Counted from the first letter of the stretch, positions 1-35,648 are shown. The stretch is 64,000 nt of DNA from an uncultured Thiomicrospira sp. (GCA_965195345.1 OZ239628.1:800001-864000), one strand, 5' to 3'. The notes: a model not told the origin generated them from the sequence alone. Numbers and translations are program-made.

Positions 1-402
1 TGGAGCCAGCAAGCCTACCTAAAAGCATCAAATACAGATGCAGATGATCAATTTGGTATGGCTTTATCGGTGAGTGATGATGGTAATACGCTTGCAGTCG
101 GTGCATTATTTGAGGACAGCGCTGCTACTGGCATCAACGGCGATGAAACAGCAAATAGTGCAGCTGGTGCTGGTGCAGTCTATGTTTTTGTTCGTAGCAG
201 CACGGGCACGTGGAGTCAACGAAGCTATATCAAAGCATCAAATACAGATGCAGATGATCAATTTGGCGATGTTCTCTCAATAAGCGGTGATGGTAAAACG
301 CTCGCTATTGGTTCTAATGCTGAAGATGGCGGTGCCACTGGCATCAATGGCGATCAAACAGACAATAGTCTAAATAGTGCTGGTGCAGTGTATTTATATT
401 AG
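1..402 (+). CDS. 3' end of an FG-GAP/integrin-like beta-propeller lipoprotein paralog (truncated by window edge; array copy 0)
   Basis: Frame is open from base 1 (WSQQAYLKASNTDADDQFG...). It shows two FG-GAP-like blades and ends GAVYLY like the downstream paralogs. Confidence 0.9.
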   Translation, partial: WSQQAYLKASNTDADDQFGMALSVSDDGNTLAVGALFEDSAATGINGDETANSAAGAGAVYVFVRSSTGTWSQRSYIKASNTDADDQFGDVLSISGDGKTLAIGSNAEDGGATGINGDQTDNSLNSAGAVYLY

Positions 403-621
403 AAATTAAATAGCTAAAAGGCAACTAAAGTACAGGCATACAGCTTTTCTGCTTAACGTTTATTGCCTTAAGTGTTATAAACTGCTTGCATGTTTTCTCA
501 TGCTTTAATTTATAATGATTTGAGTATTCGTGTCACAGGCGCGTTCCTTTCATTGAATACGGGCTTTTATCACACGCATAAACTGTGGTGGTAATTAATA
601 CATACAAAAGTTGGGGCTATA

Positions 622-3600
622 ATGTTATTTGATATGCATAATATAAAACGGTGGTTGTTTTTGTCTTTGTTTGTTTTTCTGTCTGCCTGCGGCGGTGGCG
701 GCGGCGGTGGCGATGACGACACAACACCTCCATCTACTAATACAGCACCAGATTTAAGTCTCTCTGTCAACGCCCTAACGCTTGATGAAGACTTTGGCAC
801 CTTTATCATCAACGCCACTGCAACCGATGCAGAGGATGGTCCTCTTCCCATTGCAGTTACTGGACAAGATGCCAGTCTATTCGCCATAACCACTTCTACC
901 AATCAGATAATACTTACCTCCGTTGCTAATGCCAATGGCATAGCTACACTTACAGTAAGCACTAACGATAGTGAAAATCTCTCCGTTTCCACCGAAGTAG
1001 TGGTGATTATCAATGCCATCAACGATACACCTACATTGACGCTATCAACGACCGCCATTAGTCTCAATGAAGATTTTGGCACCTTTATCATCAACGCCAC
1101 TGCCACCGATATAGAAGATGGAGCACTGTTAGTAAACGTATCTGGACAGGCTGGCTTGCTAACCACTAATATTACCACTGATCAAATTACCTTAACTTCC
1201 ATTGCCAATGCCAATGGCATAGCTACGCTTACAGTAAGCATTGTTGATAGTGAAAATCTCTCCGCTTCCACCGAAGTAGTGGTGATTATCAACGCCATCA
1301 ATGACACACCCACACTTACCTTTTCAACCACTCAACTTAGTCTAAATGCAAATTTTATATCTCAGGCAATAGCAACAGCAACAGACGTTGATGATGCTTC
1401 CTTGCTCTTAACCTTTGCACTATCTGCAACCGATGTAGTACAAATAATGACGGTTGCTAATCAGTTTATATTAAATCCTATCACTAATGCTTTTGGCGAC
1501 ACAACTATCACCCTAGCAGTATCTGATGATGATGGTGCACGCTCTTCTTCTCAAATTTTCACAGTGCGCGTTAACGCGCCCATTGCATCGACAACGCCTA
1601 CGTTAGCTTTATCAACGCAGAACATCACTTTAGATGAAGACTTCGGTACTTTTATTATCAACACCACAGCAACCGATGCAGAAGATGGGACGTTATCAGT
1701 GACCGTATCTGGACAAGCTGGCTTACTAACCACTAATGCTACTACTGATCAAATTACGCTCACTTCCGTTGCCAATGCTAATGGAATAGTTACGCTCAAT
1801 GTGCGTGCTGTTGATAGTGGTAATCTTGCAACCTCCACTGAAGTGGTAGTGGTTATCAATGCCATCAATGATGCTCCGATATTGACTCTTGCTACAACAA
1901 ATATTACCATCGTTGAAAATGCCACTGCCCGTCAAACGATTTCCATTACCAATGTGACGGATGTTGACGGAGACACACTTACTTTTTCAGTCATTGGCTC
2001 CACTTCTGTGTTTAGTAGTAATCCAACGCCCATAGTCTCCTTTTCAGACACAAGAATGATAACCTTCAGTAGACAAAGTACTACAGCTCAACTTTATTAC
2101 ACTTTACTGCCCGATACCACAGGCACTGGCTTCATTCAAATCGCTTTAACAGATGGCATAGAGACCCAACGTACTACCGTTAGCGTGACTGTAACAGAAG
2201 TTAGAACCCCACCCCAAATCACCCAAGACTTTAGAACACATCGCTTCTTTGATGCTCGTGCAACGCGTGTAGGCGCTGTTGGAGGTGTCTTATTTGCAGC
2301 ACGGGGTGTGCTCACTGGATCGACTGCAACAACCTCAACAGATGGTACGGGGAATTTTAGTAATCAATTAAACTTTGCCCGCTCTTTAGGAGGGAGTTTA
2401 GCAGAACTGTACACTGAGGAAACATACAACGCTTTATTGGGTTCTGTCTTGGTTGCCAATGGCACTGCAACAGTAGGGTTTGGGGATGATCGTTTTTGGC
2501 TTGGACTCACTGATACACCCAATACTTTTGGCGCTTCTGTGTCAGATCAATCTGCCTCAGAAGACCGTTATTTTTGGTTATCTGGTCAACGGGTGTCACA
2601 AGGATTAAACAGTGCTCGTATAGACGCCCCAGGAGTCTATATAGGTTGGGGGTCATCCGCCCCAGCTGCAAGTAATCAGCCTTGTGCGGATCTCATTCTT
2701 GGTGAAGAAGTGTCTGTAGGGTTCAGACCTTGGGCAAGTGATGGGTGCGATGGATCAGTATTTGTTATCTTCGATGTGCTAAAAGCGTTGATGCAGTTCC
2801 CAAATGGCTTACCTACTACCTCCTCAATGGTTTTTCAAGCAAACTCCCTAACCACACGTATTCGTTTAAGTGGTTATGATCTTGATGGTTCAGATAATGC
2901 ACTATCTTGGCAAGTCACCAATGCATCTGGCGGTAGTGTAACCACTTCCACAGTCTATAGCGGTACTGGCGCACAAACCTTAGAGATTGCTTACACCCCT
3001 GTGAGCAACTTTTCAGGCACTGCAACCCTTTTCGTAAGTTTAAATGATGGTGATAGTGCTACACAAAATAGTACTGCTCGTGTATTGGTGGTTAATAACA
3101 CACCAACTTTAATACTCTCAACCAATACTATCAGCTTAGATGAAGATTTTACCAGCTTCGTCATTAACACCACTGCAACCGATGCAGCAGGGATAACCGA
3201 CTTTAGTGTTAGTACAGGAAACGGTATTGTTCTTGTAACCACCTCTGCTGATGCAATTACGCTGCAATCACTTCCCAATGTAAATGGTGCTGTAACCTTA
3301 ACAGTCGTTGTGGATAGTGGTCTTTTGGCAAATACACAGACGATTAGCGTTGAGGTTAATCCAGTCAATGATAGACCTGTATTGATGCTATCATTAACCA
3401 GTCTTAGCTTAAATGAAGATTTTGGTACCTTTATCATAAATACCACTGCAACCGACGCAGAAGATGGGACACTGTCAGTGAGCGTATCTGGACAGGCTGG
3501 CTTGGTAACCACTACTATCACCACTGGTCAAATTACTCTAACTTCCATTGCCCATGCCAACGGAAGAACCACTCTAACTGTAAGCGCTAACGATAGTGAA

Positions 3601-6600
3601 AACCTCTTCGTAACCGACGAAGTGGTGGTGATTATCAATGCTGTTAATGATAATCCTGTATTGACGTTATCAACAACCAATCTCAGCCTTAATGAAGACT
3701 TTGGCACTTTCATAATCAACACCACTGCCACCGATATAGAAGATGGCGTGTTGCCTTTTACAGTGTCTGGACAAGATGCCAGTATATTCACCGTCACTAC
3801 CTCCACCAATCAGATAATGCTCACCTCCGTTGCTAATGCCAACGGAATAGTTACACTAACTGTAAGTGCTAACGATAGTGAAAACCTCTCGGCAACCACC
3901 GAAGTTGTTGTTGTTGTCAATGCCATCAATGACACACCCACACTTACCTTTTCAACCACTCAATTTAATCTGAATGCAAACTTTACCCCGCAAACAATAG
4001 CAACAGCAACAGACGTTGATGATATTTCCTTGCTCCTAACCTTTGCACTATCTGCAACCGATGTAGTACAAATAACGACGGTTGCTAATCAGTTTATATT
4101 AAATCCTATCATCAATGCTTTTGGCGACACAACTATCACCCTAGCAGTATCTGATGATGATGGTGCACGCTCTTCTTCTCAAATTTTCACAGTGCGCGTT
4201 AACACACCCATTGCATCGACAACGCCTACATTAGCCTTATCAACGCAGAACATCACTTTAGATGAAGACTTTGGTACTTTTATTATCAACACTACTGCAA
4301 CCGATGCAGAAGATGGGACACTGTCAGTAACCGTATCTGGACAGGCTGACTTATTAACCACTAATGCTACTACTGGTCAAATTACGCTCACTTCCATTGC
4401 CAATGCTAACGGCACAACTACACTTACTGTACGTGCTACCGATAGCGGAAACCTTTCCGTTACCACCGAAGTGGTGGTAACCATCAATGCCATCAACGAT
4501 ACTCCGACATTGACTCTTGCGACAACAAATATTACCATCGTTGAAAATGCCACTGCTCGTCAAACGATTTCCATTACTGATGTGGCAGATATTGAGGGAA
4601 GCACACTTACTTTTTCAGTCATTGCCTCCACTTCTGTATTTAGTAGTAATCCTACATCTGTAGTCTCTTTTTCAGACACAAGAATGATAACCTTCAGTAG
4701 ACAAAGTACGACTGCTCAACTCTATTACACTCTACTGCCCGATACCACAGGCACTGGCTTCATTCAAATCGCTCTAACAGATGGCATAGACACACAGGTT
4801 ACAACTGTTACCGTGACTGTGACAGAAGTTAGAACCTCACCCCAAATCACTCAAGACTTTAGAACACATCGCTTCTTTGATGCGCGTGCAACACGTGTAG
4901 GCGCTGTTGGAGGTGTCTTATTTGCAGCACGAGGTGCATTCACTGGATTGCTTGCATCAACCTCTACAGATGGTACAGGGAGTGCTATGAACCAATTAAA
5001 CTTTGCTCGTTCCTTAGGGGGGAGTTTAGCCGAACTATACACTGAGGAAACATACAACGCTTTATTGGGTTCTGTTTTGGTTGCCAATGGCGCTACAACA
5101 GCAGGCTTTGATGATGACCGTTTTTGGCTTGGGCTTACCAGTGTACCTAGCTTTTTTGGCGTCACTCTACCAAATCAACTTGACTCAGAAGCCCGTTATT
5201 TTTGGTTATCTGGTCAACGGGTATCGCAAGGATTAGGCGGCGGTACTCGTATAGACGTCCCAGGAGTATACATAGGCTGGGGGCCATCTGCTCCGGGTAC
5301 TCAGGGTTGTGCTGATCTGATTCTTGGTGCTGAAGTATCTGCAGCGTTCAGGCCTTGGGCAAGTGATCAATGCTTTGGAGGTGTTTTTGACGCTTTAAAA
5401 GCGTTGATGCAGTTCCCAAATGGCTTACCTACTACCTCCTCAATGATTGTTCAAGCAAGGTCTCCGATCACACTTATTCGTTTAAGTGGTTATGATCTTG
5501 ATGGTTCAGATAATACATTGTCTTGGCAAGTCACCGATGCATCTGGTGGTGGTATCGCCACTTCCACAGTCTATAGCAGTACTGGCGCACAAACCTTAGA
5601 GATTTCTTACACCCCTGTGAGCGGCTTTTCAGGCACTGCAACCCTTGTTGTAAGCTTAGATGATGGTGATAGTGCTACACAAAATAGTACTGCCCGTGTA
5701 TTGGTGGTTAATAACACCCCAACTTTAACACTCTCAACCAATGTTGTCAGCTTAGATGAAGACTTTACCAGCTTCGTCATTAACACCACTGCAACCGATG
5801 CAGAAGGGATAATCGACTTTAGTGTTAGTACAGGAAACGGCATTGTTCTTGTAACCACCTCTGCTAATGCAATTACGCTGCAATCACTTGCGAATATAAG
5901 TGGTGCTGTAACCTTAACAGTCGTTGCGGATAGTGGTCTTTTGGCAAATACACAGACGATTAGCGTTGTGGTTAATCCAGTTAACGACACTCCCACGCTG
6001 TCTTTATCTGTGACGCAAAGGGCGCTTGCTCAAAACTTTGGCACTTTCGTCATCAACACCACTGCAACCGATGTGGAATCAGGACCATTGGGCTTTAGTG
6101 TCAGCACAGGTAATGGTATTGTCAATGTGACCACCTCTGTCAATACGATTACTCTGCAATCACTCGCTAATGTCATAGGCGATGTGACGTTAACGGTTAG
6201 CGTAAGCGATGGACTATTGACGGCGACACAGTCCATTTTTATAACCGTTAGTAGACCGTTTACGTTTGAAGTATCGACAAACACTATCGTTTTAGATGAA
6301 GATTTTAATACCTTCATTATTAACACCACTGCAACGGCTGCAGATGGGACTATATTACCTATTTCAGTGGTGCAGAGCAGCTCTAACCTACTTACATTCA
6401 GCACTATAACTGGGCGCATTACCCTTTCATCTATTGCGAATGCTAATGGAGTAACAACCCTTACCGTGAGTGCGGCTAATCAAAGTGGGCTAACGAACAC
6501 GACAGAAGTAGCCATTACCATTAATTCCGTTAATGATACTCCCACGCTCAGTTTATCAAGTACAAACTTAACCTTGGCATCTAATAGCACTGGTTTGATA

Positions 6601-8571
6601 ACTGCCTTTGTCACGGATGTGGAAACAAGCAGTGCCTCATTGATCTTTTCGGTACAACAAAATCCACCTTTGTTGCAGGTGAGTACACAAGGCAATGTCA
6701 TCGTACTGAGATCGAGTGCTACTGCAGGCTCGACCACTTTAGTGATCACCGTTACTGATGGCGATGGTTCAAGCGCTTCAGCAACTGCTCGAGTTACTGT
6801 TCTATCAGGTGCTTTGAATATTGCTTTAAATGTTAAGCGCATTGATTTTTCTTGGAACACACTTCCTACAGCAAATCATTACCGCATGCTTAGCAATGTT
6901 GATTTGAATGCTGGTGGTGGTTTTGTTGATGCCAGTAGCGCAGGTTTGGTGTTTGTACCGAATAGCACGAATATTATCAATACCACAGTTTCTGCAACAG
7001 TGGATGTAGCACGCTATCTTTCTACGGCTAATGGACCACAGTACCTGCTAGAAGCTTGTACCAGTGTGGATAATTCAGCCTGTTCTATTCATGCGCAACA
7101 AACCCTGAGCAATATTCAGTTACAGGGATTAATTGGTTATTTTAAAGCCTCTTTTGCAGATGAGGGTGTGTTTGGTAGAGCTGTAGCAATAAGCGGTGAT
7201 GGCAACACATTAGTTGTCGGTGCACCCGGAGAAAATAGCGACGCCACCGGCATCAATGGTGATCAGACGAACAATAACGCATCTGCCTCTGGTGCAGCCT
7301 ATGTTTTTGTACGCAACAGTGCAGGCACATGGAGTCAACAAGCCTATGTCAAAGCTTCTAATACAGGAGTTTTGGATCAATTTGGCACAGCTGTAGCAAT
7401 AAATGATGACGGTAACACCATAGTTGTCGGTGCACTTGGGGAGGACAGTACCGCCACGGGTATCAACGGTGATCAATTAGATAATTCTGCAAGTGACTCT
7501 GGTGCAGCCTATGTTTTTGTGCGTAGTAGTACAGGTACATGGAGTCAACAGGCTTACATCAAGGCTTCTAATGCAGAAGCTCTTGATGATTTTGGCAGAA
7601 CTGTATCGGTCACTGCTGATGGTAATACACTCGCTATTGGTGCGCCTTTAGAAGACAGTACTGCTACAGGCATTAACGGCGACGAAACAAACAATGGAGC
7701 AAGTGGCTCTGGTGCAGCCTATGTTTTTGTGCGTAGTACTACGGGCACATGGAGTCAACAAGCTTATATCAAAGCTTCTAATGCAGAAGCTCTTGATGAT
7801 TTTGGTTTTGCTGTATCGGTGAGCGATGATGGTAATACTTTAGTTATTGGGGCATCTTTTGAAGACAGCACCGCCACGGGCATTAACGGCGATCAAACAA
7901 CTAATAGTGCAAGTGCTTCTGGTGCAGCTTATGTTTTTGTGCGCAGTGCTACCGACACATGGACGCAAGAAGCCTACATCAAAGCCTCAAACACAGGTGT
8001 TAATGATCAATTTGGTTTAGCTACTTCAATTAGTGGTGATGGTAACACACTGCTCATCAGCTCAATTGGAGAAGACAGCAATGCCACGGGTATCAACGGT
8101 GATCAAACAAACAATGCCGCAAATGGTGCTGGTGCAGCCTATGTTTTTGTGCGTAGTAGTACAGGCACATGGAGTCAACAAGCCTACATCAAGGCCTCCA
8201 ATACAGGAGATCAGGATGAATTTGGTAGCGCTCTCTCAATTAACAATGATGGTAGTATATTTGCTATCGGTGCTCCTTTTGAAGATAGTGATGTTAGTGG
8301 CATCAACGGTGATCAAATAAACAATGATGCATTTCGCGCTGGTGCAGCCTATGTTTTTGTGCGTAGTAGTACAGGCACATGGAGTCAACGAAGTTACATC
8401 AAAGCATCAAACACAGGAGTTTTAGATCGATTTGGTTCAGCTCTCTCAATAAGCGGTGATGGTAAGACACTCTCTATCGGTGCACCTTTCGAAGATAGCG
8501 ATGCCACCGGCATTAATGGTGATCAGACGAATAACAATGAGTCTGAGGCTGGTGCAGTGTATTTATATTAG
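622..8571 (+). CDS. Giant surface lipoprotein adhesin, copy 1: cadherin/Ig-like repeats, two C-type-lectin-like domains, FN3-like neck, 7-blade FG-GAP propeller
   Basis: Lipobox FLSA-C followed by poly-Gly; repeats with LxED/ATDxED/NDxP cadherin-like motifs; CTLD-like segments at ~2350-2800 and ~4980-5420; seven FGxAVAISGDG...GAP...GAAYVF blades from ~7135. True start may be the ATG at 634. Confidence 0.88.
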   Translation: MLFDMHNIKRWLFLSLFVFLSACGGGGGGGDDDTTPPSTNTAPDLSLSVNALTLDEDFGTFIINATATDAEDGPLPIAVTGQDASLFAITTSTNQIILTSVANANGIATLTVSTNDSENLSVSTEVVVIINAINDTPTLTLSTTAISLNEDFGTFIINATATDIEDGALLVNVSGQAGLLTTNITTDQITLTSIANANGIATLTVSIVDSENLSASTEVVVIINAINDTPTLTFSTTQLSLNANFISQAIATATDVDDASLLLTFALSATDVVQIMTVANQFILNPITNAFGDTTITLAVSDDDGARSSSQIFTVRVNAPIASTTPTLALSTQNITLDEDFGTFIINTTATDAEDGTLSVTVSGQAGLLTTNATTDQITLTSVANANGIVTLNVRAVDSGNLATSTEVVVVINAINDAPILTLATTNITIVENATARQTISITNVTDVDGDTLTFSVIGSTSVFSSNPTPIVSFSDTRMITFSRQSTTAQLYYTLLPDTTGTGFIQIALTDGIETQRTTVSVTVTEVRTPPQITQDFRTHRFFDARATRVGAVGGVLFAARGVLTGSTATTSTDGTGNFSNQLNFARSLGGSLAELYTEETYNALLGSVLVANGTATVGFGDDRFWLGLTDTPNTFGASVSDQSASEDRYFWLSGQRVSQGLNSARIDAPGVYIGWGSSAPAASNQPCADLILGEEVSVGFRPWASDGCDGSVFVIFDVLKALMQFPNGLPTTSSMVFQANSLTTRIRLSGYDLDGSDNALSWQVTNASGGSVTTSTVYSGTGAQTLEIAYTPVSNFSGTATLFVSLNDGDSATQNSTARVLVVNNTPTLILSTNTISLDEDFTSFVINTTATDAAGITDFSVSTGNGIVLVTTSADAITLQSLPNVNGAVTLTVVVDSGLLANTQTISVEVNPVNDRPVLMLSLTSLSLNEDFGTFIINTTATDAEDGTLSVSVSGQAGLVTTTITTGQITLTSIAHANGRTTLTVSANDSENLFVTDEVVVIINAVNDNPVLTLSTTNLSLNEDFGTFIINTTATDIEDGVLPFTVSGQDASIFTVTTSTNQIMLTSVANANGIVTLTVSANDSENLSATTEVVVVVNAINDTPTLTFSTTQFNLNANFTPQTIATATDVDDISLLLTFALSATDVVQITTVANQFILNPIINAFGDTTITLAVSDDDGARSSSQIFTVRVNTPIASTTPTLALSTQNITLDEDFGTFIINTTATDAEDGTLSVTVSGQADLLTTNATTGQITLTSIANANGTTTLTVRATDSGNLSVTTEVVVTINAINDTPTLTLATTNITIVENATARQTISITDVADIEGSTLTFSVIASTSVFSSNPTSVVSFSDTRMITFSRQSTTAQLYYTLLPDTTGTGFIQIALTDGIDTQVTTVTVTVTEVRTSPQITQDFRTHRFFDARATRVGAVGGVLFAARGAFTGLLASTSTDGTGSAMNQLNFARSLGGSLAELYTEETYNALLGSVLVANGATTAGFDDDRFWLGLTSVPSFFGVTLPNQLDSEARYFWLSGQRVSQGLGGGTRIDVPGVYIGWGPSAPGTQGCADLILGAEVSAAFRPWASDQCFGGVFDALKALMQFPNGLPTTSSMIVQARSPITLIRLSGYDLDGSDNTLSWQVTDASGGGIATSTVYSSTGAQTLEISYTPVSGFSGTATLVVSLDDGDSATQNSTARVLVVNNTPTLTLSTNVVSLDEDFTSFVINTTATDAEGIIDFSVSTGNGIVLVTTSANAITLQSLANISGAVTLTVVADSGLLANTQTISVVVNPVNDTPTLSLSVTQRALAQNFGTFVINTTATDVESGPLGFSVSTGNGIVNVTTSVNTITLQSLANVIGDVTLTVSVSDGLLTATQSIFITVSRPFTFEVSTNTIVLDEDFNTFIINTTATAADGTILPISVVQSSSNLLTFSTITGRITLSSIANANGVTTLTVSAANQSGLTNTTEVAITINSVNDTPTLSLSSTNLTLASNSTGLITAFVTDVETSSASLIFSVQQNPPLLQVSTQGNVIVLRSSATAGSTTLVITVTDGDGSSASATARVTVLSGALNIALNVKRIDFSWNTLPTANHYRMLSNVDLNAGGGFVDASSAGLVFVPNSTNIINTTVSATVDVARYLSTANGPQYLLEACTSVDNSACSIHAQQTLSNIQLQGLIGYFKASFADEGVFGRAVAISGDGNTLVVGAPGENSDATGINGDQTNNNASASGAAYVFVRNSAGTWSQQAYVKASNTGVLDQFGTAVAINDDGNTIVVGALGEDSTATGINGDQLDNSASDSGAAYVFVRSSTGTWSQQAYIKASNAEALDDFGRTVSVTADGNTLAIGAPLEDSTATGINGDETNNGASGSGAAYVFVRSTTGTWSQQAYIKASNAEALDDFGFAVSVSDDGNTLVIGASFEDSTATGINGDQTTNSASASGAAYVFVRSATDTWTQEAYIKASNTGVNDQFGLATSISGDGNTLLISSIGEDSNATGINGDQTNNAANGAGAAYVFVRSSTGTWSQQAYIKASNTGDQDEFGSALSINNDGSIFAIGAPFEDSDVSGINGDQINNDAFRAGAAYVFVRSSTGTWSQRSYIKASNTGVLDRFGSALSISGDGKTLSIGAPFEDSDATGINGDQTNNNESEAGAVYLY

Positions 8572-8821
8572 AATACGTATATAGCTAAAAGAGAACTAAA
8601 ATTGCTTGATTACCCATACATTATGTATTCATCAGGAAGACGGGCATACAGCTTTTCTATTTAACGTTTATTGCTTTAAATGTTATAAACTGCTTGCATG
8701 TTTCATCATACTTTAATTTATAATCAATCAAATTGTCACAGGCAAAATGTGAGCTTCTATCACATACGCAAGCTGTAGTGAAATTGTAATTGCATAATTA
8801 AATACATTAAGGTGAATTGAT

Positions 8822-19324: not shown

Positions 19325-19573
19325 AAGACGTATATAGCTAAAAGGCAATTAGAGTTGTTTGATTACTCGAGCATTATGTGTTCATCAGGAGAACAGGCGC
19401 ACAACTTTCTTACTTAACGTTTCGCTGTAAATGTTATGAACTGTTTGCGAATTTTCTCATGCTTTAATTTGTAATGATTGAGATTGCTGGATTGTAGATA
19501 TATTGCTTTTATCAAACACATAAACTGTTGTGATAATTGTGATTTCATAGTTAAAAATAAAATATAGGCCTAA

Positions 19574-22540: not shown

Positions 22541-22787
22541 ATACGTATATAGCTAAAAGGCAATTAGAGTTGCTTGATTAACCCACCATTATGTATTCAT
22601 CAGGAGAACAGGCGCACAACTTTTTTACTTAATGTTTCGCTGTAAATGTTATGAACTGTTTGCATGTTTTCTCATGCTTTAATTTATAATGATTAGGATT
22701 GCTGGATTGTAGACATACTGCTTTTATCAAACACATAAACTGTTGTGATAATTGTGATTTCATAGTTAAAATAAAATATAGGACTAA
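22541..22787 (+). repeat. Conserved intergenic unit of the array (related copies at 403-621, 8572-8821, 19325-19573, 27261-27508, 31973-32132, 35649-35856)
   Basis: Shared blocks tagctaaaaggcaattagagttgcttgatta, ttcatcagga, ttaa(c/t)gttt...taaatgttat and tttctcatgctttaatttataat occur between genes, with some copies partly deleted; absent at 16589-16852. Confidence 0.85.
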
Positions 22788-27260: not shown

Positions 27261-27508
27261 AAGACGTATATAGCTAAAAGGCAATTAGAGTTGCTTGATT
27301 ACCCCACCATTATGTGTTCATCAGGAGAACAGGCACACAGCTTTTTTACTTAATGTTTCGCTGTAAATGTTATGAACTGTTTGCATGTTTTCTCATGCTT
27401 TAATTTATAATGATTAGGATTGCTGGATTGTAGACATACTGCTTTTATCAAACACATAAACTGTTGTGATAATTGTGATTTCATAGTTAAAATAAAATAT
27501 AGGACTAA

Positions 27509-30500
27509 ATGAAAATGAACCATTTAAAGTGCTGGGGATTTCTATTATCACTCGTTTTTTTATCTGCCTGTGGCGGTGGGGGTGGCGGCGATTCAACACC
27601 TCCGTCTACTAATACAGCACCAAGTTTAAGTCTCTCTGTCAATGCCCTAATGCTTGATGAAGATTTTGGCACTTTTGTCATCAATACCACTGCAACCGAT
27701 GCAGAAGATGGGACACTGTCCGTAACTGTATCTGGACAGGCTGGTTTGCTAACCACTGATGTCACCACTGGTCGAATTACCCTAACTTCCATTGCCAATG
27801 CTAACGGCACAGCTACACTTACTGTACGTGCTACCGATAGCGGAAACCTCTCTGCTACCACCGAAGTGGTTGTCACCATTAACGCCATCAATGATGCCCC
27901 GACATTTACTCTTGCTACAACAAACATTACTATCGTTGAAAATGCCACTGCTCGTCAAACGATTTCCATTCCCAATGTAGTCGATGTTGACGGAAACGCA
28001 CTGACCTTTTCAGTCATTGCCTCCACTTCTTTATTTAGTACTAACCCAACACCTGTTGTGTCTTTTTCAGATACAAGGGTGATAATCTCCGATACACAAC
28101 CTACAGCTCAACTCTATTACAGCCTACTGCCCGACGTCACAGGCTCTGGCTTCATTCAAATTGCTTTAACAGATGGCATAGAGACCCAACGTACGACCGT
28201 TACTGTTACTGTTACAGAAGTTAGAACTCCACCCCAAATTACCCAAGACTTTAGAACACATCGCTTCTTTGATGCGCGTGCAACGCGTGTAGGCGCTGTT
28301 GGAGGTGTCTTATTTGCAGCACGAGGTGCATTTACTGGATCGACTGAAACAACCTCAACAGATGGTACGGGGAATTTTAGTAATCAATTAAACTTTGTCC
28401 GTTCCTTAGGAGGGAGTTTAGCCGAACTTTACACTGAGGAAACATACAACGCTTTATTGGGTTCTGTTTTGGTTTCCAATGGCACTGCAACAGCAGACTT
28501 TAATGATGATCGTTTTTGGCTTGGACTCACTGATACACCCAATGCTTTTGGCGCTTCTGTGTCAGATCAATCTGCCTCAGTAGAGCGTTATTTTTGGTTG
28601 TCTGGTCAGCGGGTGTCACAAGGATTAGGTATTTCTCGTATAGAAGTTCCAGGAGTGTACATAGGCTGGGGGGCATCCGCCCCAACTGCAAGCAATCAGC
28701 CCTGTGCTAATTTGATTCTTGGTGCCGAAGTATCTGCAGGTCTCAGACCTTGGGCAAGTACTGGGTGCGATGGATCATCATCTGCTACTTTCAATGTGCT
28801 AAAAGCGTTGATGCAGTTCCCAAATGGCTTACCTACTACTTCTTCAATGATTGTTCAAGCGAGGCTCCCAATCACACGTATTCGTTTAAGTGGTTATGAT
28901 CTTGATGGTTCAGATAATACATTGTCTTGGCAAGTTACCGATGCATCTGGTGGTGGTATCACTACTTCCACAGTCTATAGCAGTACTGGCGCACAAACCT
29001 TAGAGATTTCTTACACTCCTGTGAGCGGCTTTTCAGGAACTGCGACCCTTGTTGTAAGCTTAGATGATGGTGATAGTGCTACGCAAAATAGTACTGCCCG
29101 TGTATTGGTGGTTAATAACACACCAACTTTAACACTCTCAACCAATGTTGTCAGCTTAGATGAAGACTTTACCAGCTTCGTCATTAACACCACTGCAACC
29201 GATGCAGCAGGGATAATCGACTTTAGTGTTAGCACAGGAAACGGTATTGTTTTTGTAACCACCTCTGCTAATGCGATTACACTGCAATCACTTTCGAATA
29301 TAAATGGTGCTGTAACCTTAACAGTCGTTGCGGATAGTGGTCTTTTGACAAATACACAGACGATTAGCGTTGTGGTTAATCCAGTTAACGACACTCCCAC
29401 GCTGTCTTTATCTGTGACGCAAAGGGTGCTTGCTCAAAACTTTGGCACTTTCGTCATCAACACCACTGCAACCGATGTGGATTCAGGCCCATTGGGCTTT
29501 AGTGTCAGTACAGGTAATGGCATTGTTAATGTAACAACCTCTGTCAATACGATTACTCTGCAATCACTCGCTAATGTCATAGGCGATGTGACGTTAACGG
29601 TTAGCGTAAGCGATGGACTATTGACGACGACACAGTCCATTTTTATAACCGTTAGTAGACCGTTTACGTTTGAAGTATCGACAAACACTATCGTTTTAGA
29701 TGAAGATTTTAATACCTTCATTATTAACACCACTGCAACGGCTGCAGATGGGACTATATTACCTATTTCAGTGGTGCAGAGCAGTTCTAACCTACTTACA
29801 TTCAGCACTATAACTGGGCGCATTACCCTTTCATCTATTGCGAATGCTAATGGAGTAACAACTCTTACCGTGAGTGCGGCTAATCAAAATGGACTAACGA
29901 ACACGACAGAAGTAGCGATTACCGTTAATTCCGTTAATGACACTCCCACACTCAGCTTATCAACTACAAACTTAACTTTCTCACCTAATGGAACCGGTTT
30001 TATAACTGCTTTTGGTGCGGATGTGGAAACAAGCAGTGCCTCATTGATCTATTCTGTACAACAAAATCCATCTTTGTTGCAGGTGAGTACACCAGGCAAT
30101 GTCATTGTACTGAGAGCGGATGATACTACAGGTTCGACAACTTTAGTGATAACCGTTACTGATGGCGGTGGTTCAAGCGCTTCAGCAACTGCTCGAGTTA
30201 CTGTTCTATCAGGTGTTTTGAATGCTTTGAGCGTAAGTTTAAATGTTAAACGCATTAACTTTTCTTGGAACACACTTCCTACAGCAAACCATTACCGTAT
30301 GCTTAGCAATGTCGATTTGAACGCTGGTGGTGGTTTTGTTGATGCCAGTAGCGCAGGTTTGGTGTTTATACCGAATAGCACGAATATTATCAATACTACA
30401 GTCTCTGCAACAGTGGATGTGGCACGCTATCTTTCTACGGCTGATGGACCACAGTATCTGCTGCAAGCTTGTAGTAGTGTGGACAATTTCGCTTGTTCTA

Positions 30501-31972
30501 ATCTTGCACAACAATCTCTGAGCAATATTCAGTTAGAGGGATTGATTGGTTACTTCAAAGCTTCTAATACGGAAATGGGAGATGAATTTGGTGAGGGTGT
30601 CGCAATAAGTGGTGATGGCAACACATTAGTTGTCGGTGCACCCGGAGAAGATAGCGACGCCACCGGCATCAACGGCGATGAATCAGACAATTCTAGAAGT
30701 AACTCTGGTGCAGCCTATGTTTTCGTGCGCAGTAGTACAGGCAGCTGGCGTCAACAAGCATACCTTAAAGCCTCTGATGCAGCAGATGATGATGGGTTTT
30801 CTTCAAGAGCTGTAACAATAAGCAATGACGGTAATACTATAGTTGTTGGTGCACCACGCAAGGATGTTGCCGCTCCTGGCGGTAGCCCCCAGGGCAACAC
30901 TGGTGCAGCCTATGTTTTCGTGCGCAGTAGTACCGGCAGCTGGCGTCAACAGGCTTTCATCAGCGCTTCTAATCTAAATGCCAATGATCAGTTTGGAACA
31001 GCTGTATCGGTTGCTGCTGATGGTAATACACTCGCTATCGGTGCGCCTTCAAAAACTGTACGTACTATAGATTCTATGGGTCAATCTGTGAGCAGAGCTA
31101 CTGCTGGTACAGCCTATGTTTTTGTACGCAGTAGTACAGATTCATCATGGAGTGAGCAAGCTATATTGACAGCACCTTTTGTAACGAGTTTTGCTTTTTT
31201 TGGTAATGCTGTATCGATGAGTGGTGATGGTAATACCATGGTCGTCGGTGCAGACGGTGACCAAAGTACTGGCACGGGTATCGGCAGTGATGAATCCACC
31301 ATTAATGATTTTGGTACCGGTGCTGCCCATGTTTTTGTACGTAGTAGTACGGGTAGATGGAGTCGGCAAGAATATTTTAAAGCCTCAAATGCAGAAGGTA
31401 CTGATCTCTTTGGTACAGCTGTATCGATGAGCGGTGATGGTAATACCATGGTCGTTGGTGCACCAGGGGAAGACAGCAATGCCACGGGTGTCGACGGGGA
31501 TCAAGCAAATAATGGTAGTGGTGTTAATTCAAATTCTGGTGCAGCCTATGTTTTTGTGCGCAGTAGTACGGGCACATGGACGCAAGAAGCCTATATCAAA
31601 GCCTCAAATACAGGAGATGGTGATGTGTTTGGTTCTGTTCTCTCAATGAGCAATGATGGTAATGCGTTCGTTGTTGGTGCACCAAATGAGGACAGCAATG
31701 CCACGGGAATCAACGGGGGGGAAGCAGGTGGTGCTAATAACGCTGGTGCAGTCTATCTTTTTGTGCGCAGTGGTACGACATGGCGTCAACAAGCCTATAC
31801 CAAAGCCTCAAACACAGGAGCTGATGATGCGTTTGGTGACTCTGTTTCAATAAGCAGTGATGGTAAAACGTTTGCTGTTGGCGCATCTGGCGAAAATGGC
31901 AGCGCCACTGGTATCAATGGCGATCAAACAGACGATAGTCAAGATAACGCTGGTGCAGTGTATTTGTATTAG
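27509..31972 (+). CDS. Lipoprotein adhesin, copy 6 (recent tandem duplicate of copy 5 with a diverged propeller)
   Basis: Starts 4721 bp after copy 5; first ~1000 aa nearly identical to copy 5; propeller loops differ. Confidence 0.88.
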   Translation: MKMNHLKCWGFLLSLVFLSACGGGGGGDSTPPSTNTAPSLSLSVNALMLDEDFGTFVINTTATDAEDGTLSVTVSGQAGLLTTDVTTGRITLTSIANANGTATLTVRATDSGNLSATTEVVVTINAINDAPTFTLATTNITIVENATARQTISIPNVVDVDGNALTFSVIASTSLFSTNPTPVVSFSDTRVIISDTQPTAQLYYSLLPDVTGSGFIQIALTDGIETQRTTVTVTVTEVRTPPQITQDFRTHRFFDARATRVGAVGGVLFAARGAFTGSTETTSTDGTGNFSNQLNFVRSLGGSLAELYTEETYNALLGSVLVSNGTATADFNDDRFWLGLTDTPNAFGASVSDQSASVERYFWLSGQRVSQGLGISRIEVPGVYIGWGASAPTASNQPCANLILGAEVSAGLRPWASTGCDGSSSATFNVLKALMQFPNGLPTTSSMIVQARLPITRIRLSGYDLDGSDNTLSWQVTDASGGGITTSTVYSSTGAQTLEISYTPVSGFSGTATLVVSLDDGDSATQNSTARVLVVNNTPTLTLSTNVVSLDEDFTSFVINTTATDAAGIIDFSVSTGNGIVFVTTSANAITLQSLSNINGAVTLTVVADSGLLTNTQTISVVVNPVNDTPTLSLSVTQRVLAQNFGTFVINTTATDVDSGPLGFSVSTGNGIVNVTTSVNTITLQSLANVIGDVTLTVSVSDGLLTTTQSIFITVSRPFTFEVSTNTIVLDEDFNTFIINTTATAADGTILPISVVQSSSNLLTFSTITGRITLSSIANANGVTTLTVSAANQNGLTNTTEVAITVNSVNDTPTLSLSTTNLTFSPNGTGFITAFGADVETSSASLIYSVQQNPSLLQVSTPGNVIVLRADDTTGSTTLVITVTDGGGSSASATARVTVLSGVLNALSVSLNVKRINFSWNTLPTANHYRMLSNVDLNAGGGFVDASSAGLVFIPNSTNIINTTVSATVDVARYLSTADGPQYLLQACSSVDNFACSNLAQQSLSNIQLEGLIGYFKASNTEMGDEFGEGVAISGDGNTLVVGAPGEDSDATGINGDESDNSRSNSGAAYVFVRSSTGSWRQQAYLKASDAADDDGFSSRAVTISNDGNTIVVGAPRKDVAAPGGSPQGNTGAAYVFVRSSTGSWRQQAFISASNLNANDQFGTAVSVAADGNTLAIGAPSKTVRTIDSMGQSVSRATAGTAYVFVRSSTDSSWSEQAILTAPFVTSFAFFGNAVSMSGDGNTMVVGADGDQSTGTGIGSDESTINDFGTGAAHVFVRSSTGRWSRQEYFKASNAEGTDLFGTAVSMSGDGNTMVVGAPGEDSNATGVDGDQANNGSGVNSNSGAAYVFVRSSTGTWTQEAYIKASNTGDGDVFGSVLSMSNDGNAFVVGAPNEDSNATGINGGEAGGANNAGAVYLFVRSGTTWRQQAYTKASNTGADDAFGDSVSISSDGKTFAVGASGENGSATGINGDQTDDSQDNAGAVYLY

Positions 31973-32132
31973 AATACGTATATAGCTAAAAGGCAATTAG
32001 AGTTGCTTGATTACTCCACCATTATGTATTCATCAGAAGAACAGGCGCACAACTTTTTTACTTAACGTTTATTGCTGTAAATGTTATAAACTGTTGTGGT
32101 AATTATGATTTCATAGTGAGAATATAAGGTTA

Positions 32133-35100
32133 ATGAAAATGAAACATTTAAAACGTTGGGGATTTCTACTACTATTTGTCTTTCTAACTGCCTGTGGGGA
32201 TGACACAACACCTTTGTCTACTAATATTAACACAACACCAAACTTAAGTCTCTCTGTCAATACCTTAACACTTGATGAAGATTTTGGCACTTTTATCATC
32301 AATACCACTGCTACTGATGCAGAAGATGGGATACTGCCAGTAACCGTATTTGGACAGGCTGGCTTGCTAACCACTGATGTCACTACTGGCCAAATTACGC
32401 TCACTTCCATTGCTAATGCTACCGGCATAGCTACGCTCACAGTGCGTGTTGTTGATAGCGAAAACCTCCCCGTTTCCACCGAAGTGGTGGTGACCGTAAA
32501 CGCCATCGATGATACGCCTGTTTTGACGTTATCAACGACTAACCTCAGTCTCAGTGAAGATTTTGGCACTTTTATTATCAACACTACAGCAACTGATGTA
32601 GAGGATGGTGTATTATCTTTTACAGTATCTGGTCAAGATACAAGTGTATTAACAGTCAGAACTTCCACCAATCAGATAATACTCACCTCCGTTGCTAATG
32701 CCACCGGAACAGTCACACTCACTGTAAGCGCTACCGACAGTGAGGCTCTTACAGCTAACACCGAAGTGGTGGTGATCATCAATGACATCGATGATACTCC
32801 TGTGCTGACAATATCAACAACGAACCTCAGCCTCAGTGAAGACTTTGGCACTTTTATCATCAACACCACTGAGGGTGATATAGAAGATGGTGTATTACCT
32901 TTTACAGTATCTGGTCAAGATGCAAGTATATTAACAGTTAGCACTGCTATCAATCAGATAATACTCACCTCCGTTGCTAATGCCAACGGAACAGTCACAC
33001 TCACTGTAAGTGCTACTGATAGTGAGGATCTTACAGTCTCCACCGAAGTGGTGGTGATTATTAATGCCGTCAATGATACGCCTGTATTGACGCTATCAAC
33101 AACCAACCTTAGCCTCAGTGAAGACTTTGGCACTTTCATCATCAACACCACTGCAAGTGATGCAGAAGATGGCGTGCTTCCCGTTGCAGTGACTGGACAA
33201 GATGCCAGTCTATTCGCCGTAACCACTTCTACCGATCAGATAATACTTACCTCCGTTGCCAATGCCAACGGAACAGCCACGCTCACTGTAAGCATTGTTG
33301 ATAGCGGTAACCTCTCCACTTCCACTGAAGTGGTGGTTGTTGTCAACGCCATCAACGATACGCCTGTATTGACGCTATCAACATCTAACCTCAGTCTCGA
33401 TGAGGATTTTGGCACTTTCATCATCAACACCACTGCATCTGATGCAGAAGATGGTGTGTTATCTTTTACGGTATCTGGTCAAGATGCAAGTGTATTAACA
33501 GTCAGCACTTCTATCAATCAGATAATGCTCACTTCCGTTGCTAATGCTAATGGAACAATGACTCTTACAGTCAGTGCAACCGATCAAGGTGGACTAACGA
33601 CAACGGCAAAAATAACTATTGTCATTAATCCTGTTGATGACAATCCAATACTTAATTTATCAGCAACAAACTTTAACTTACTAATGGATACAGCTGCGGT
33701 GCTCACTGCCTTTGGTGTAGATGTGGATTCAAGCAGTGCCGTGTTGGTCTATTCTGCACAGCAAGAAACACCTCTGTTAAATCAGATACAAATAGCAAGC
33801 AATACCATCGCGCTGGGAGCAGGTAATACTTTAGGCTCAACCACTTTGGTAATCACCGTCACTAATGACAGAGGATTAAGTACTTCTGCAACCGCTCGAG
33901 TTACTGTTTTATCTGCTATTTCGAATACTTTTTTAAATGTAAGTTTAAATGTTAAGCGGATTAACTTTTCTTGGAGTATGCTTCCTGCAGCCAATCATTA
34001 CCGCATGCTCAGCAATGTGAATTTGGCTACAGCGCGTGGCTTTGTTGATGCCAGTAGTGCACATGCAGTGTTTGCACCGAATAGCACCAATATTATCAAT
34101 ACTACAGTCTCTGCGACAGTAAATGTGGCGCGTTATCTTTCTACGGCTGATAGACCAGAGTATCTGCTACAAAGTTGTACGAGTGTGGATAATTCAGCCT
34201 GTTCTACTTATGCACAAGCAGCCCTGAGCAATACTCAAATAAAGGGATTGATTGGTACTTTCAGACCCACTTGGCCAGACTTTGGAGATCAATTTACTGA
34301 AAGTCTGACATTCAATGGCGCTGGTAATATTTTTGTTGCTGGTGCACCTTTTGAAAGCAGTGACTTTACTGGCATCAACACATTTGTTTTAGTAGGTTCA
34401 AACAATAGGGCTAGGGCCTCTGGCGCAGCCTATATTTTTGAGCTTAGTAGCACTGGCACGTGGAGTCAACGAGCTTACCTCAAAGCCTCTAATACAGGAG
34501 TTGGTGATTTCTTTGGTAGAAGTCTGGCAATAAGTGGCGACGGCAATACTTTAGCTGTTGGGGCAACTTTGGAAGACGGCACCTCCACTGGCGTAAACGG
34601 GTATCAATTTAGCGATAATGAACTTCAATCCGGTGCAGTTTATGTTTTTGTGCGTAGTAGTGCCGGTGCATGGAGCCAGCAAGCGTACATAAAAGCTTCT
34701 AATACAGAAATGTATGAACAATTTGGTAGAGCTCTAACAGTCAGCAGTAACGGCAATACCATCTTTGTTGGTGTCCCTCGTGAGGCTACTGGATTAGACG
34801 GCGATCAAACAAGAAACGGTGCACCTCAATCTGGCGGAGTCTATGTTTTTGAGCGCAACAGTTCGAGCGTATGGAGCCAAACAGCTTTAATCAAAGCTTC
34901 TAATTTACAGGCTGGTGACAATTTTGGTGAGGCTGTATCGGTAAGCAGTGACGGCAATGTTTTACTTGTTGGTGCCCCTTTTGAAGCCAGTCTCGCTACT
35001 GGAATTAACGGAGATCAAACAAACAATGCTGGAAATGACACTGGCGCAGCTTATCTTTTTGTCCGTAGTAGCACTGGTTCGTGGAACCAACAAGCCTACA

Positions 35101-35648
35101 TCAAAGCCTCAAATCCAGAGGAATTTGATGTTTTTGGTGCCAGAGTAGCGATAAGTGGTGATGGTAATACCCTAGCCGTTGGAGCGGATTCAGAAGATAG
35201 CAACGCCACTGGAATCAATGGCGATCAAACGAACAATGATGCACTTCAATCCGGTGCAGTCTATGTTTATGCTCGTAGTGGTACCGATACATGGGCACAA
35301 CAAGCCTACATCAAAGCCTCTAATACAGACGCATACGATTTCTTCGGTTCAGATCTTTCAATAAGTGATGATGGTAATAGCTTAACCGTTGGCGCACCTG
35401 GGGAAGACAGCAGTAGCAATGCCATCAATGGGGATCAAATAAACAATAATGTAAATGGCTCTGGTGCAGCTTATCTTTTTGTCCGTAGCAGTAATGGCAC
35501 ATGGAGCCAACAAGCCTATATCAAAAGCCCATTCGCTGTCTCAGGAGTTACACTTGGCACAAGTGTTTCAATGAGCGGTGATAGCAATGCAATAGCCATC
35601 GGTGCATTTAGATTTGACAATAATGCTGGTGAAGTGTATTTATATTAG
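32133..35648 (+). CDS. Lipoprotein adhesin, copy 7: ~6 cadherin-like repeats and the most divergent FG-GAP propeller
   Basis: Lipobox FLTA-C-GDD with no poly-Gly; neck LNVKRINFSW...; ends GEVYLY. Confidence 0.87.
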   Translation: MKMKHLKRWGFLLLFVFLTACGDDTTPLSTNINTTPNLSLSVNTLTLDEDFGTFIINTTATDAEDGILPVTVFGQAGLLTTDVTTGQITLTSIANATGIATLTVRVVDSENLPVSTEVVVTVNAIDDTPVLTLSTTNLSLSEDFGTFIINTTATDVEDGVLSFTVSGQDTSVLTVRTSTNQIILTSVANATGTVTLTVSATDSEALTANTEVVVIINDIDDTPVLTISTTNLSLSEDFGTFIINTTEGDIEDGVLPFTVSGQDASILTVSTAINQIILTSVANANGTVTLTVSATDSEDLTVSTEVVVIINAVNDTPVLTLSTTNLSLSEDFGTFIINTTASDAEDGVLPVAVTGQDASLFAVTTSTDQIILTSVANANGTATLTVSIVDSGNLSTSTEVVVVVNAINDTPVLTLSTSNLSLDEDFGTFIINTTASDAEDGVLSFTVSGQDASVLTVSTSINQIMLTSVANANGTMTLTVSATDQGGLTTTAKITIVINPVDDNPILNLSATNFNLLMDTAAVLTAFGVDVDSSSAVLVYSAQQETPLLNQIQIASNTIALGAGNTLGSTTLVITVTNDRGLSTSATARVTVLSAISNTFLNVSLNVKRINFSWSMLPAANHYRMLSNVNLATARGFVDASSAHAVFAPNSTNIINTTVSATVNVARYLSTADRPEYLLQSCTSVDNSACSTYAQAALSNTQIKGLIGTFRPTWPDFGDQFTESLTFNGAGNIFVAGAPFESSDFTGINTFVLVGSNNRARASGAAYIFELSSTGTWSQRAYLKASNTGVGDFFGRSLAISGDGNTLAVGATLEDGTSTGVNGYQFSDNELQSGAVYVFVRSSAGAWSQQAYIKASNTEMYEQFGRALTVSSNGNTIFVGVPREATGLDGDQTRNGAPQSGGVYVFERNSSSVWSQTALIKASNLQAGDNFGEAVSVSSDGNVLLVGAPFEASLATGINGDQTNNAGNDTGAAYLFVRSSTGSWNQQAYIKASNPEEFDVFGARVAISGDGNTLAVGADSEDSNATGINGDQTNNDALQSGAVYVYARSGTDTWAQQAYIKASNTDAYDFFGSDLSISDDGNSLTVGAPGEDSSSNAINGDQINNNVNGSGAAYLFVRSSNGTWSQQAYIKSPFAVSGVTLGTSVSMSGDSNAIAIGAFRFDNNAGEVYLY

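Follow-up and report, generated by a model that had tools for sequence, protein, structure and literature searches.

A tandem array of stalked FG-GAP_2 propeller genes in an uncultured Thiomicrospira genome encodes a candidate family of variable surface binding proteins

Introduction

Why would a bacterium with a genome of 1.92 Mb keep, side by side and in one orientation, a long row of large related genes that each appear to encode a lipid-anchored protein with a repetitive stalk and a beta-propeller head? The question is raised by a 64,000-nucleotide stretch of DNA from an uncultured, probably marine Thiomicrospira sp. (GCA_965195345.1, OZ239628.1:800001-864000; hereafter the window), which corresponds to positions 800001-864000 of a one-contig genome rated 99.7% complete and whose first 35,648 nucleotides are occupied by such genes. 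We argue for a family of lipid-anchored binding proteins, either adhesins or lectins, that is specific to the lineage, diversifies fast and is probably located at the cell surface, a reading drawn from sequence to which we assign a probability of roughly 0.6.

If this reading is true, genomes of about 2 Mb give 4-12% of their DNA to a single surface binding family, an unusual outlay for streamlined genomes that would put attachment or recognition at the centre of the life of these uncultured bacteria. The family would then offer a natural series in which one head is carried on stalks of 2-21 repeats, and on far longer frames in a congener, and because the variable positions of the head can be read directly, ligand hunting and structure work would be tractable. 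It would also provide a first point of entry to the function of the FG-GAP_2 lipoproteins, which are widespread and, among bacterial proteins, look most like the integrin alpha head.

Results and Discussion

Fourteen co-oriented genes form one array

The map of open reading frames (ORFs) in window positions 1-35648 holds seven complete plus-strand ORFs and the 3' end of an eighth (Table 1). The only other ORFs of at least 150 amino acids in this interval are five antisense frames, all of which lie within the big genes. An initial annotation of the window had described at least eight co-oriented paralogs with no other gene between them, which the window bears out as seven complete genes and the tail of an eighth, and had suggested an extension to the left. 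Carried out with tblastn and the ORF map, this extension raises the count to 14 co-oriented copies over 75 kb (genome 760714-835648), numbered here in genome order. Four further copies are found elsewhere in the genome, as a tandem pair at 1.23 Mb and as divergent singles at 1.62 and 1.83 Mb, and the 18 genes together amount to ~28,800 codons, or ~4.5% of the genome, when ORF lengths are summed.

Repetitive DNA of this kind could in principle be one or two genes falsely expanded during assembly, particularly as the public short-read contigs are fragmented and none spans two genes. However, the copies differ by 4-45% in their C-terminal 580 amino acids and, in addition, in length and module content. 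Contigs from public runs, possibly of the source sample, match without a single difference across the junctions at 16545-16915, 31985-32311 and 35300-35780, and two closed congener genomes carry comparable arrays. The differences among copies, the contigs over unique junctions and the congener arrays thus leave an artefact, which the initial annotation had raised as a possible refutation, hardly credible, the order of the genes being that of the assembly. Four public runs from one study contain the window stretch, with 30 of 30 bins covered in three of them and 29 of 30 in the fourth, and no RNA run was listed for it. In all four, one contig joins position 18546 to 21579 (3032 bases skipped, 11 other letters, shorter side 35-37), which may represent another paralog or a recombinant variant of copies 10 and 11 in the population.

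A lipobox, an Ig-like stalk and a propeller head

A lipobox of the form L[ST]AC is present in all 14 array copies, as had been claimed for each, with its Cys at residue 19-26. The proteins thereby conform, by sequence, to the pattern of lipoproteins processed by signal peptidase II, in which [LVI][ASTVI][GAS]C ends a signal peptide. Gly occupies the +2 position in 14 of 14 copies and is followed by a poly-Gly and then by a Thr/Pro-rich stretch.

The stalk that follows is made of a repeat unit of ~94 amino acids. A hidden Markov model (HMM) built from the array copies counts 2-21 units in the window copies, in agreement with the earlier estimate of 2 to ~21; not counted is one partial match per gene that falls within the neck of copies 10 and 11, the two shortest. 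The identification of the units as cadherin repeats did not survive the comparison with family models, since no cadherin model scores above its threshold (Cadherin_4 only 16.9-19.1 bits, cut-off 25.1; the CELSR cadherin model 18.6 bits, cut-off 36.8), whereas the NCBIfam tandem-95 model (NF012211; cut-off 90 bits) gives 258.9, 319.6, 112.1, 106.4 and 105.0 bits in five of the seven window copies and Pfam Big_9 matches the repeats with E values down to 2.7e-17. The two shortest copies remain under the tandem-95 cut-off, at 28.3 and 51.8 bits, because they have few repeats. When a profile of 17 repeat units was compared with solved domains, PKD came first (E 6.5e-4), followed by cadherin-23 and protocadherins (E 0.017-0.2). 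Acidic motifs of the ..VNAxNDxP.. and DxEDG types occur once per repeat, and the unit is best classed as a bacterial immunoglobulin (Ig)-like repeat with a cadherin-like acidic linker, not as a cadherin.

Between stalk and head lies a neck of ~100 amino acids. It was described initially as FN3-like, of which a beta-rich neck with two Cys residues stands (predicted local distance difference test, pLDDT, 52-84 by AlphaFold2), but no Pfam family matched it and the FN3 label stays tentative. The stalk HMM partly overlaps the neck in 2 of the 14 copies, which suggests a degenerate Ig-like domain.

The seven-bladed FG-GAP propeller proposed for the C-terminus is confirmed at the levels of both sequence family and predicted fold. 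Pfam FG-GAP_2 (PF14312; cut-off 23 bits) scores 150.5-189.6 bits (E 1e-45 to 1e-57) in the window copies, with seven stretches in six of them and six stretches in the last, copy 14. The AlphaFold2 model of the neck and head of copy 10 (pLDDT 87.2, predicted template modelling score 0.82) has seven blades. Integrin chains made up 49 of the 50 matches listed by Foldseek for this model (E 3e-14 to 4e-11, target template modelling score 0.63-0.67), and the top eight rows from VIA-align, which works independently of Foldseek, were integrin alpha subunits (Z 30.6-32.5, root-mean-square deviation 2.9-3.2 Å, 353-375 residues, 18-22% identity), with generic WD40-type propellers next (Z ~30, ~290-300 residues aligned). 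The last propeller strand (...AVYLY) forms the C-terminal end of the array proteins, and their anchor is N-terminal. A homodimer prediction for two propellers of 490 amino acids each returned a score of 0.00, which is no verdict and counts neither for nor against binding.

A head of this fold could also serve chemistry instead of attachment. Beta-propellers are frequently enzymes, generic seven-bladed propellers score Z ~30 beside the 30.6-32.5 of the integrins, and the head core is highly conserved across phyla, all of which would fit periplasm-facing or enzymatic lipoproteins with a catalytic or substrate-binding propeller, engaged for example in polysaccharide processing or in nutrient capture without attachment. 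We consider this distinctly improbable, as stalks of up to 21 Ig-like repeats, and congener frames of up to 12231 codons, are wider than any periplasm, no catalytic family matched the window copies, and the sites that vary are surface loops and not a conserved pocket.

Modules are exchanged and the head diversifies

The copies are mosaics. Their C-terminal 580 amino acids are 55-96% identical and their first 125 amino acids 61-99% identical, and the two matrices disagree: copies 1 and 5 share 96% of the C-terminus and 70% of the N-terminus, copies 12 and 13 share 99% of the N-terminus and 82% of the C-terminus, and copies 12 and 13 match copy 5 at 95-96% in the N-terminus. Because the nearest paralogs of the N- and C-terminal parts differ, modules have been exchanged between copies. 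At the DNA level, copies 12 and 13 are 99-100% identical in the spacer, the stalk and the cassette, with identity falling to 95-97% near the neck and to 79-91% within the head; young duplicates differ most in the propeller. The proposal that stalk length and tip both vary therefore agrees with the data, in that the stalks hold 2-21 repeats and the head loops are the fastest-changing part of the youngest paralogs.

The pattern of change within the head was followed with the ratio of non-synonymous to synonymous substitution (dN/dS), calculated by the Nei-Gojobori method with our own script for residue classes that had been fixed beforehand from the strands of the model. Among the youngest paralogs (copies 9, 12 and 13), dN/dS was 0.82-0.96 for the whole head and 0.10-0.54 for the neck. 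Within the head of these three copies, it reached 2.27 in the 4-1 loops (87.7 non-synonymous versus 12.3 synonymous) and 0.96 in the 2-3 loops, and was 0.51 in the strands, 0.33 in the 1-2 loops and 0.31 in the 3-4 loops. The older pairs 10/11 and 3/4 gave 0.40-0.73 in the 4-1 and 2-3 loops and 0.29-0.56 in the strands; over all 91 pairs, the corresponding values were 0.46-0.57 for the 4-1 and 2-3 loops and 0.24-0.30 for the strands and the 1-2 and 3-4 loops together. Beta-meander topology, not measured coordinates, places the 4-1 and 2-3 loops together on one face of the propeller and the 1-2 and 3-4 loops opposite to them. Identical blade positions are variable in all seven blades, namely three residues before the invariant D.FG, two after it and parts of the long 2-3 loop, and the fixed parts of the head are KASNT, S.DGNT, EDS.ATGINGDQ and the strands.

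Such a pattern could also arise if the proteins formed a variable protective coat or decoy, a dense and changeable brush diversified by phages or grazers that use it as their receptor, in which case the evolution would resemble antigenic variation and would not serve to capture ligands. Fast change is limited to exposed loops of the distal head, copies are gained and lost in a lineage-specific manner, ~4.5% of the genome is invested in the family, and genes of defence or conflict (Rhs, patatin, STAND NTPase) are adjacent, all of which speaks for this explanation. No on/off switch was found, though: a reverse transcriptase is absent from the genome, the spacers showed no invertible or slippery element, and the poly-Gly tracts are in frame and written in mixed GGN codons. 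The head core and its motifs are, moreover, strongly conserved across phyla, which fits a binding function under constraint, and we regard the coat or decoy as unlikely beside a family of binding proteins.

The expansion of the family is specific to the lineage

The head belongs to a very common family, with at least 7809 proteins matched; many of these matches share 50-58% identity in the head, have different N-terminal modules and belong to a wide range of phyla, and the few with names are called FG-GAP repeat protein, integrin or hypothetical. Matched genome records include Ghiorsea, Microbulbifer, Grimontia, Paucimonas, Noviherbaspirillum, Flavobacteriaceae, Myxococcota, Planctomycetota and others. 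At eight outside loci, the gene has 567-696 amino acids, consists of neck and head, occurs in one or two copies and has unrelated neighbours, and no conserved neighbours of these short homologs were seen there. A clear lipobox with a Gly-rich tether is present in the Microbulbifer, Grimontia and Ghiorsea frames, and no clear lipobox was seen in the neck-plus-propeller frames of Paucimonas and Noviherbaspirillum. Like the array copies, the short FG-GAP_2 proteins of these five genera, at 620-700 amino acids, have a neck and a seven-bladed head (46-58% identical) and a ...GAVY[LI]Y C-terminus. In contrast to the stalked array copies, they lack the tandem-95 stalk and the lectin cassette described below and occur once or twice per genome; they explain the descent of the array copies and not their function. 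The neck-plus-propeller lipoprotein is thus known as a short, low-copy gene, and the array is built from known parts, the stalked and arrayed form being new.

The closest relatives of the genome are closed gammaproteobacterial genomes of ~2 Mb. Counting open frames that match neck plus head at E <= 1e-60, we found 16 in the genome itself (G000), 33 and 25 in two members of the same genus (G001 and G002) and none in two members of other genera in the same family (G003 and G004); in a first search, any match at all was found in 6 of 41 genomes. The frames in G002 extend to 6547, 6717, 7019 and 12231 codons. Summed from stop to stop, the frames comprise ~62,300 codons in G001 and ~84,000 in G002, or roughly 9% and 12% of genomes of ~2.1 Mb. 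The congener copies carry a lipobox where the N-terminus was examined and have tandem-95-like repeats, and short stalk-less forms stand in tandem among them.

A FastTree phylogeny of 46 heads (all 18 of G000, 8 of 33 from G001, 11 of at least 25 from G002 and 9 outgroup rows) unites the 1.23-Mb pair with the 14 array copies as a clade of its own at a Shimodaira-Hasegawa-like support of 100, and all 19 sampled congener copies in another clade with a support of 98. Since these 16 copies form a clade separate from those of the congeners, the expansion, or a homogenisation, is lineage-specific. Identity between the housekeeping neighbours and their congener orthologs is low, at 58-64%. The congener orthologs of the upstream aldehyde dehydrogenase and cysS adjoin no comparable arrays, the nearest family frame lying ~10-25 kb away.

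These observations invite a more ambitious interpretation, according to which the genus possesses a germline-encoded recognition repertoire evolving by birth and death, with dozens of receptors on one scaffold of lipid anchor, adjustable Ig-like stalk and multivalent seven-bladed head, a ligand face under positive selection, and heads, stalks and an orphan lectin module that are shuffled from gene to gene. A streamlined bacterium could use such a set to distinguish and bind eukaryotic partners, phytoplankton for example, or kin, as a bacterial counterpart of variable receptor families in animals such as protocadherins or variable lymphocyte receptors. We hold this to be rather unlikely in so strong a form.

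A cassette with a probable lectin-like module in half of the array genes

Seven of the 14 array genes, among them copy 8 with two, contain a cassette of ~410 amino acids that consists of a divergent Ig-like domain, a module of 201-206 amino acids and a second divergent Ig-like domain. The module has exactly two Cys residues and the motifs WLGLT, YFWLSG, GWG..P, C[AD]L and RPW...C (also C...W..D.C). The initial annotation had called it a C-type-lectin-like domain. Its only Pfam match is Lectin_C, at 14.5 and 13.3 bits (E 0.06 and 0.15) and below the 22.6-bit cut-off; the best PDB profile match, weak at E 0.12, is the GlcNAc-specific C-type lectin 6a7s_B; and Lectin_C is annotated on 25 of the 30 nearest ESM-Atlas clusters, with a score of 0.93. 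These three signals are weak but concordant and make a C-type-lectin-like module probable at scores below the family threshold, the AlphaFold2 prediction from eight paralog rows being unusable at pLDDT 34.9. By eye, the aligned modules have no EPN/QPD tripeptide and show RPWAS or RPWSS at the expected WND position; EPN/QPD and WND are the Ca2+ and sugar motifs of C-type lectins. Sugar binding by the module is conceivable from its likeness to lectins and is put forward with this reservation.

A HMMER search of 1.84 billion representative proteins with the module returned only copy 1 of the same array and one spurious repetitive frame. In whole-genome searches it was found in G000, gave no match in G001, G002 and G004, and gave one weak match in G003 (E 7.6e-5). 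The module may be a very divergent bacterial C-type-lectin-like domain. A ninth module, 47% identical, lies at about residue 1001 of a 14,360-codon frame elsewhere in the genome (285547-328629), which is a possible source or sink of the cassette. That frame has an N-terminal signal and 18 tandem-95-like repeat matches, and its C-terminus, with a Gly run, a hydrophobic stretch and basic residues, resembles a C-terminal sorting tag of a GlyGly-CTERM-like kind.

Over its whole length the lectin cassette is under purifying selection (dN/dS 0.22-0.38), with local windows near 1 inside the lectin module. A diversity-generating retroelement was considered as the source of variability and rejected, as no RVT_1 match was obtained in the 99.7%-complete genome and the control genomes were matched.

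A putative working of the proteins and its weak points

Taken as surface binding proteins, the array products could work as follows. They would be exported by the Sec pathway, receive their lipid at the lipobox Cys and then be sorted to the outer membrane, probably for display on the surface. The genome has a match above cut-off to a type II secretion secretin, and type II secretion is one known route for surface lipoproteins. After the lipid anchor, the poly-Gly and Thr-Pro stretch would act as a flexible tether for a rod of 2-21 tandem-95 Ig-like repeats. The acidic NDxP-type linkers probably bind Ca2+ and, by analogy with the extenders of RTX adhesins and with cadherins, probably stiffen the stalk through it. 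With ~4.5 nm per Ig-like domain, the rod would hold the neck and the seven-bladed FG-GAP_2 propeller distally, at an estimated 10-90 nm from the membrane. On the predicted fold, the propeller would be the main ligand-binding head, probably multivalent through seven similar loop sets on one face, the face that diversifies, and half of the copies would also carry the lectin-like module as a side arm within the stalk. New variants would come from tandem gene duplication, from expansion of repeats within genes and from recombination that swaps stalks and heads. As to the ligands, we would guess at glycans or proteins, carried by phytoplankton, by particles or by other cells.

Several points weigh against this reading. 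Gly at +2 indicates outer-membrane sorting only under the E. coli rule. The Slam exporter (PF04575) was not found in the genome, in a search that is uninformative in that the control genomes were also silent. The integrin Ca2+ hairpin DxDxDGxxD was found by motif search in 0 of 14 propellers, so that an integrin-style metal chemistry cannot be assumed, and the identity of 50-58% that the propeller retains across many phyla could mean a conserved, non-adhesive core job. With regard to selection, the dN/dS of the older pairs stays under 1 in every class, and the values come from a simple Nei-Gojobori count on recombining paralogs, in which the pairs among copies 9, 12 and 13 are non-independent and the counts small; the shared face of the 4-1 and 2-3 loops follows from propeller topology only.

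Comparison with known systems

The initial annotation had read the proteins as metazoan adhesion folds. For the head this is right in so far as integrin alpha is its best structural match, whereas the stalk is an ordinary bacterial tandem-95/Big_9 repeat, and the metazoan flavour was overstated. Lipoproteins made of this neck and propeller are common among free-living bacteria from many phyla. Like the propeller of integrin alpha (e.g., 4wjk_A and 7usm_A), the array head is a seven-bladed FG-GAP propeller with N-terminal strand closure. The two are 14-22% identical, however, and the array head has no DxDxDGxxD hairpins. The array proteins also lack the thigh and calf legs and the C-terminal transmembrane helix of integrin alpha and place the lipid anchor at the N-terminus and the head at the C-terminus. 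No integrin-beta-like partner is known for them, no search having been aimed at one.

The locus had further been said to work like a protocadherin cluster. The clustered protocadherins of vertebrates are numerous tandem variants of a cadherin-type ectodomain, with the specificity in its distal part. In them, variable exons are spliced to constant exons, promoters are chosen stochastically and binding is homophilic. The array resembles them, as an analogy, only in its many tandem variants with a variable distal part. Variable reach combined with a variable tip is the part of the comparison that stands, and the mechanism is the part that does not, as each array gene is complete with its own start and spacer, no constant parts are shared and there is no sign of a choice of one among many. 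A strict version of the comparison, in which identical variants bind each other between cells as an identity code for self or kin, could appeal to the many paralogs with variable distal heads on cadherin-like stalks and to the only match of a whole copy to a solved structure by sequence, which is to a protocadherin linker region (E 0.0045). That match is a short linker motif, however, other bacteria have short forms in low copy number that do not point to such a code, and the genes are autonomous and without a variable-plus-constant structure, which makes homophilic recognition highly improbable. For the preferred reading, closer parallels are found among bacterial surface proteins. Mycoplasma, Borrelia and Leptospira (Lig) have multi-copy lipoprotein families that diversify by duplication and recombination in host-pathogen settings and with known switches, the Lig proteins consisting of a lipobox and tandem Ig-like repeats. 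The folds of those families differ from those of the array proteins, and at the array no switch was found.

Bacterial propellers of the PF01839 type, as described in PMC3192720, have one Ca2+ hairpin site per blade and differ in this from the array head, where the hairpin is absent. The RTX/LapA-type adhesins, including Marinomonas primoryensis MpIBP and Vibrio FrhA, are portrayed as tandem Ig-like rods with linker Ca2+ and distal ligand domains, lectins among them; they occur in marine Gammaproteobacteria as single giant genes with type I secretion and C-terminal RTX repeats (PMC7493085, PMC8092209, PMC10523503). Compared with the adhesins as these sources present them, the array proteins have a lipobox anchor, form a family of 14-33 members and lack RTX repeats: HemolysinCabind had no match in the window copies, and GGxGxD appears at most once in a protein, confined to the poly-Gly tether. 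The Myxococcus xanthus proteins CglB and CglD are described as surface-exposed outer-membrane lipoproteins with integrin-type domains that act as Ca2+-dependent adhesins (10.1101/2023.10.19.562135). In that account their domains are of the VWA type (alpha-I or beta-integrin-like) and they are single genes tied to the gliding machine, whereas the array proteins have an alpha-type propeller.

The nearest functional systems are accordingly the giant Ca2+-dependent adhesins and the variable surface-lipoprotein families. By family, the array proteins are lipoproteins (from their sequence), FG-GAP_2 proteins and tandem-95 proteins; they are not cadherins, RTX adhesins or targets of diversity-generating retroelements, and resemble integrin alpha in fold only. 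Literature searches yielded no description of FG-GAP_2 lipoprotein arrays of such architecture, in keeping with the statement in the initial annotation that no described system was recognised.

Spacers and genomic setting

The coordinates of the window features are collected in Table 1.

Table 1. Coordinates of the array copies and associated features in the window.
Feature	Position	Strand	Details
Copy 7, 3' end (last two blades)	1..402	+	gene start at genome 794265, left of window; 2045 aa
Copy 8	622..8571	+	2649 aa; lipobox Cys 23; 16 repeat matches; two lectin-like cassettes; neck and propeller 6832-8568
Copy 9	8822..16588	+	2588 aa; lipobox; 21 repeats; without lectin module; neck and propeller 14852-16585
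Copy 10, shortest	16853..19324	+	823 aa; lipobox; 2 repeats; neck and propeller 17561-19321; copy used for modelling
Copy 11	19574..22540	+	988 aa; lipobox; 4 repeats; neck and propeller 20804-22537
Copy 12	22788..27260	+	1490 aa; lipobox; 6 repeats; one lectin-like cassette; neck and propeller 25524-27257
Copy 13	27509..31972	+	1487 aa; 6 repeats; lectin-like module 28229-28846; neck and propeller 30245-31969
Copy 14, last and most divergent	32133..35648	+	1171 aa; lipobox LTAC; 6 repeats; neck and propeller 33951-35645
Intragenic tandem array, stalk of copy 9	9526..14547	+	17.9 units of 282 bp, 89% matches
Probable C-type-lectin-like module, first in copy 8	2209..2826	+	
Probable C-type-lectin-like module, second in copy 8	4840..5442	+	
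Probable C-type-lectin-like module, copy 12	23508-24125	+	
Probable C-type-lectin-like module, copy 13	28229-28846	+	
Conserved spacer of ~250 bp, example	22541..22787	+	promoter-like site with overlapping imperfect palindrome
Further conserved spacers	403-621, 8572-8821, 19325-19573, 27261-27508, 31973-32132	+	similar to 22541-22787
Promoter-like sites	19509-19537, 22724-22752, 27445-27473		TTATCA-17-GATAAT with upstream TG; ~35 bp before three start codons

The spacers between the window copies measure, in order, 219, 250, 264, 249, 247, 248 and 160 bp, and six of the seven resemble one another along most of the sequence. The promoter-like site of the conserved spacers is overlapped by an imperfect palindrome, TTATCAAACAC...GTTGTGATAA, which could be the site of a shared regulator. 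Individual promoter-like sites count as weak evidence, because the scan returned 56 of them versus 43.2 +/- 6.2 expected. A structured RNA or riboswitch was considered for the spacers and rejected, the array having no Rfam match at gathering scores and only 1 of 45 predicted pairs covarying in five spacers. The spacer before copy 10 (16589-16852) is unlike the other six, and the N-terminal leader of copy 10 is also different; its promoter may differ from those of the other copies.

The array has a single interruption, which lies outside the window, where an insert of 2 kb separates copies 2 and 3 (genome 773360-775385). This insert contains a degraded copy reduced to a 95-amino-acid stub, with the lipobox and the start of the first repeat, and a 53-amino-acid repeat fragment, between which lie three unrelated small ORFs of 84, 125 and 192 amino acids. 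By eye, the 125-amino-acid ORF looks rhodanese-like and the 192-amino-acid ORF resembles a LysE-type transporter.

The array has a G+C content of 42-47% and the DNA to its right one of 32-41%. This low-G+C stretch (window 36000-62720) encodes LodA (lysine oxidase) with a tryptophan-halogenase-like, LodB-like partner, an LRAT-like protein, an SpvB/RHS pair, a patatin and a STAND NTPase of 1250 amino acids. A phage-type integrase, split in two frames on the minus strand (61303-62309), adjoins a tRNA-Met gene at 62645-62720, and the stretch is probably a separate, decaying genomic island integrated at the tRNA. Beyond it, the minus strand of window positions 62774-64000 encodes a protein with an FGE-sulfatase (formylglycine-generating-enzyme-like) domain that runs off the right end.

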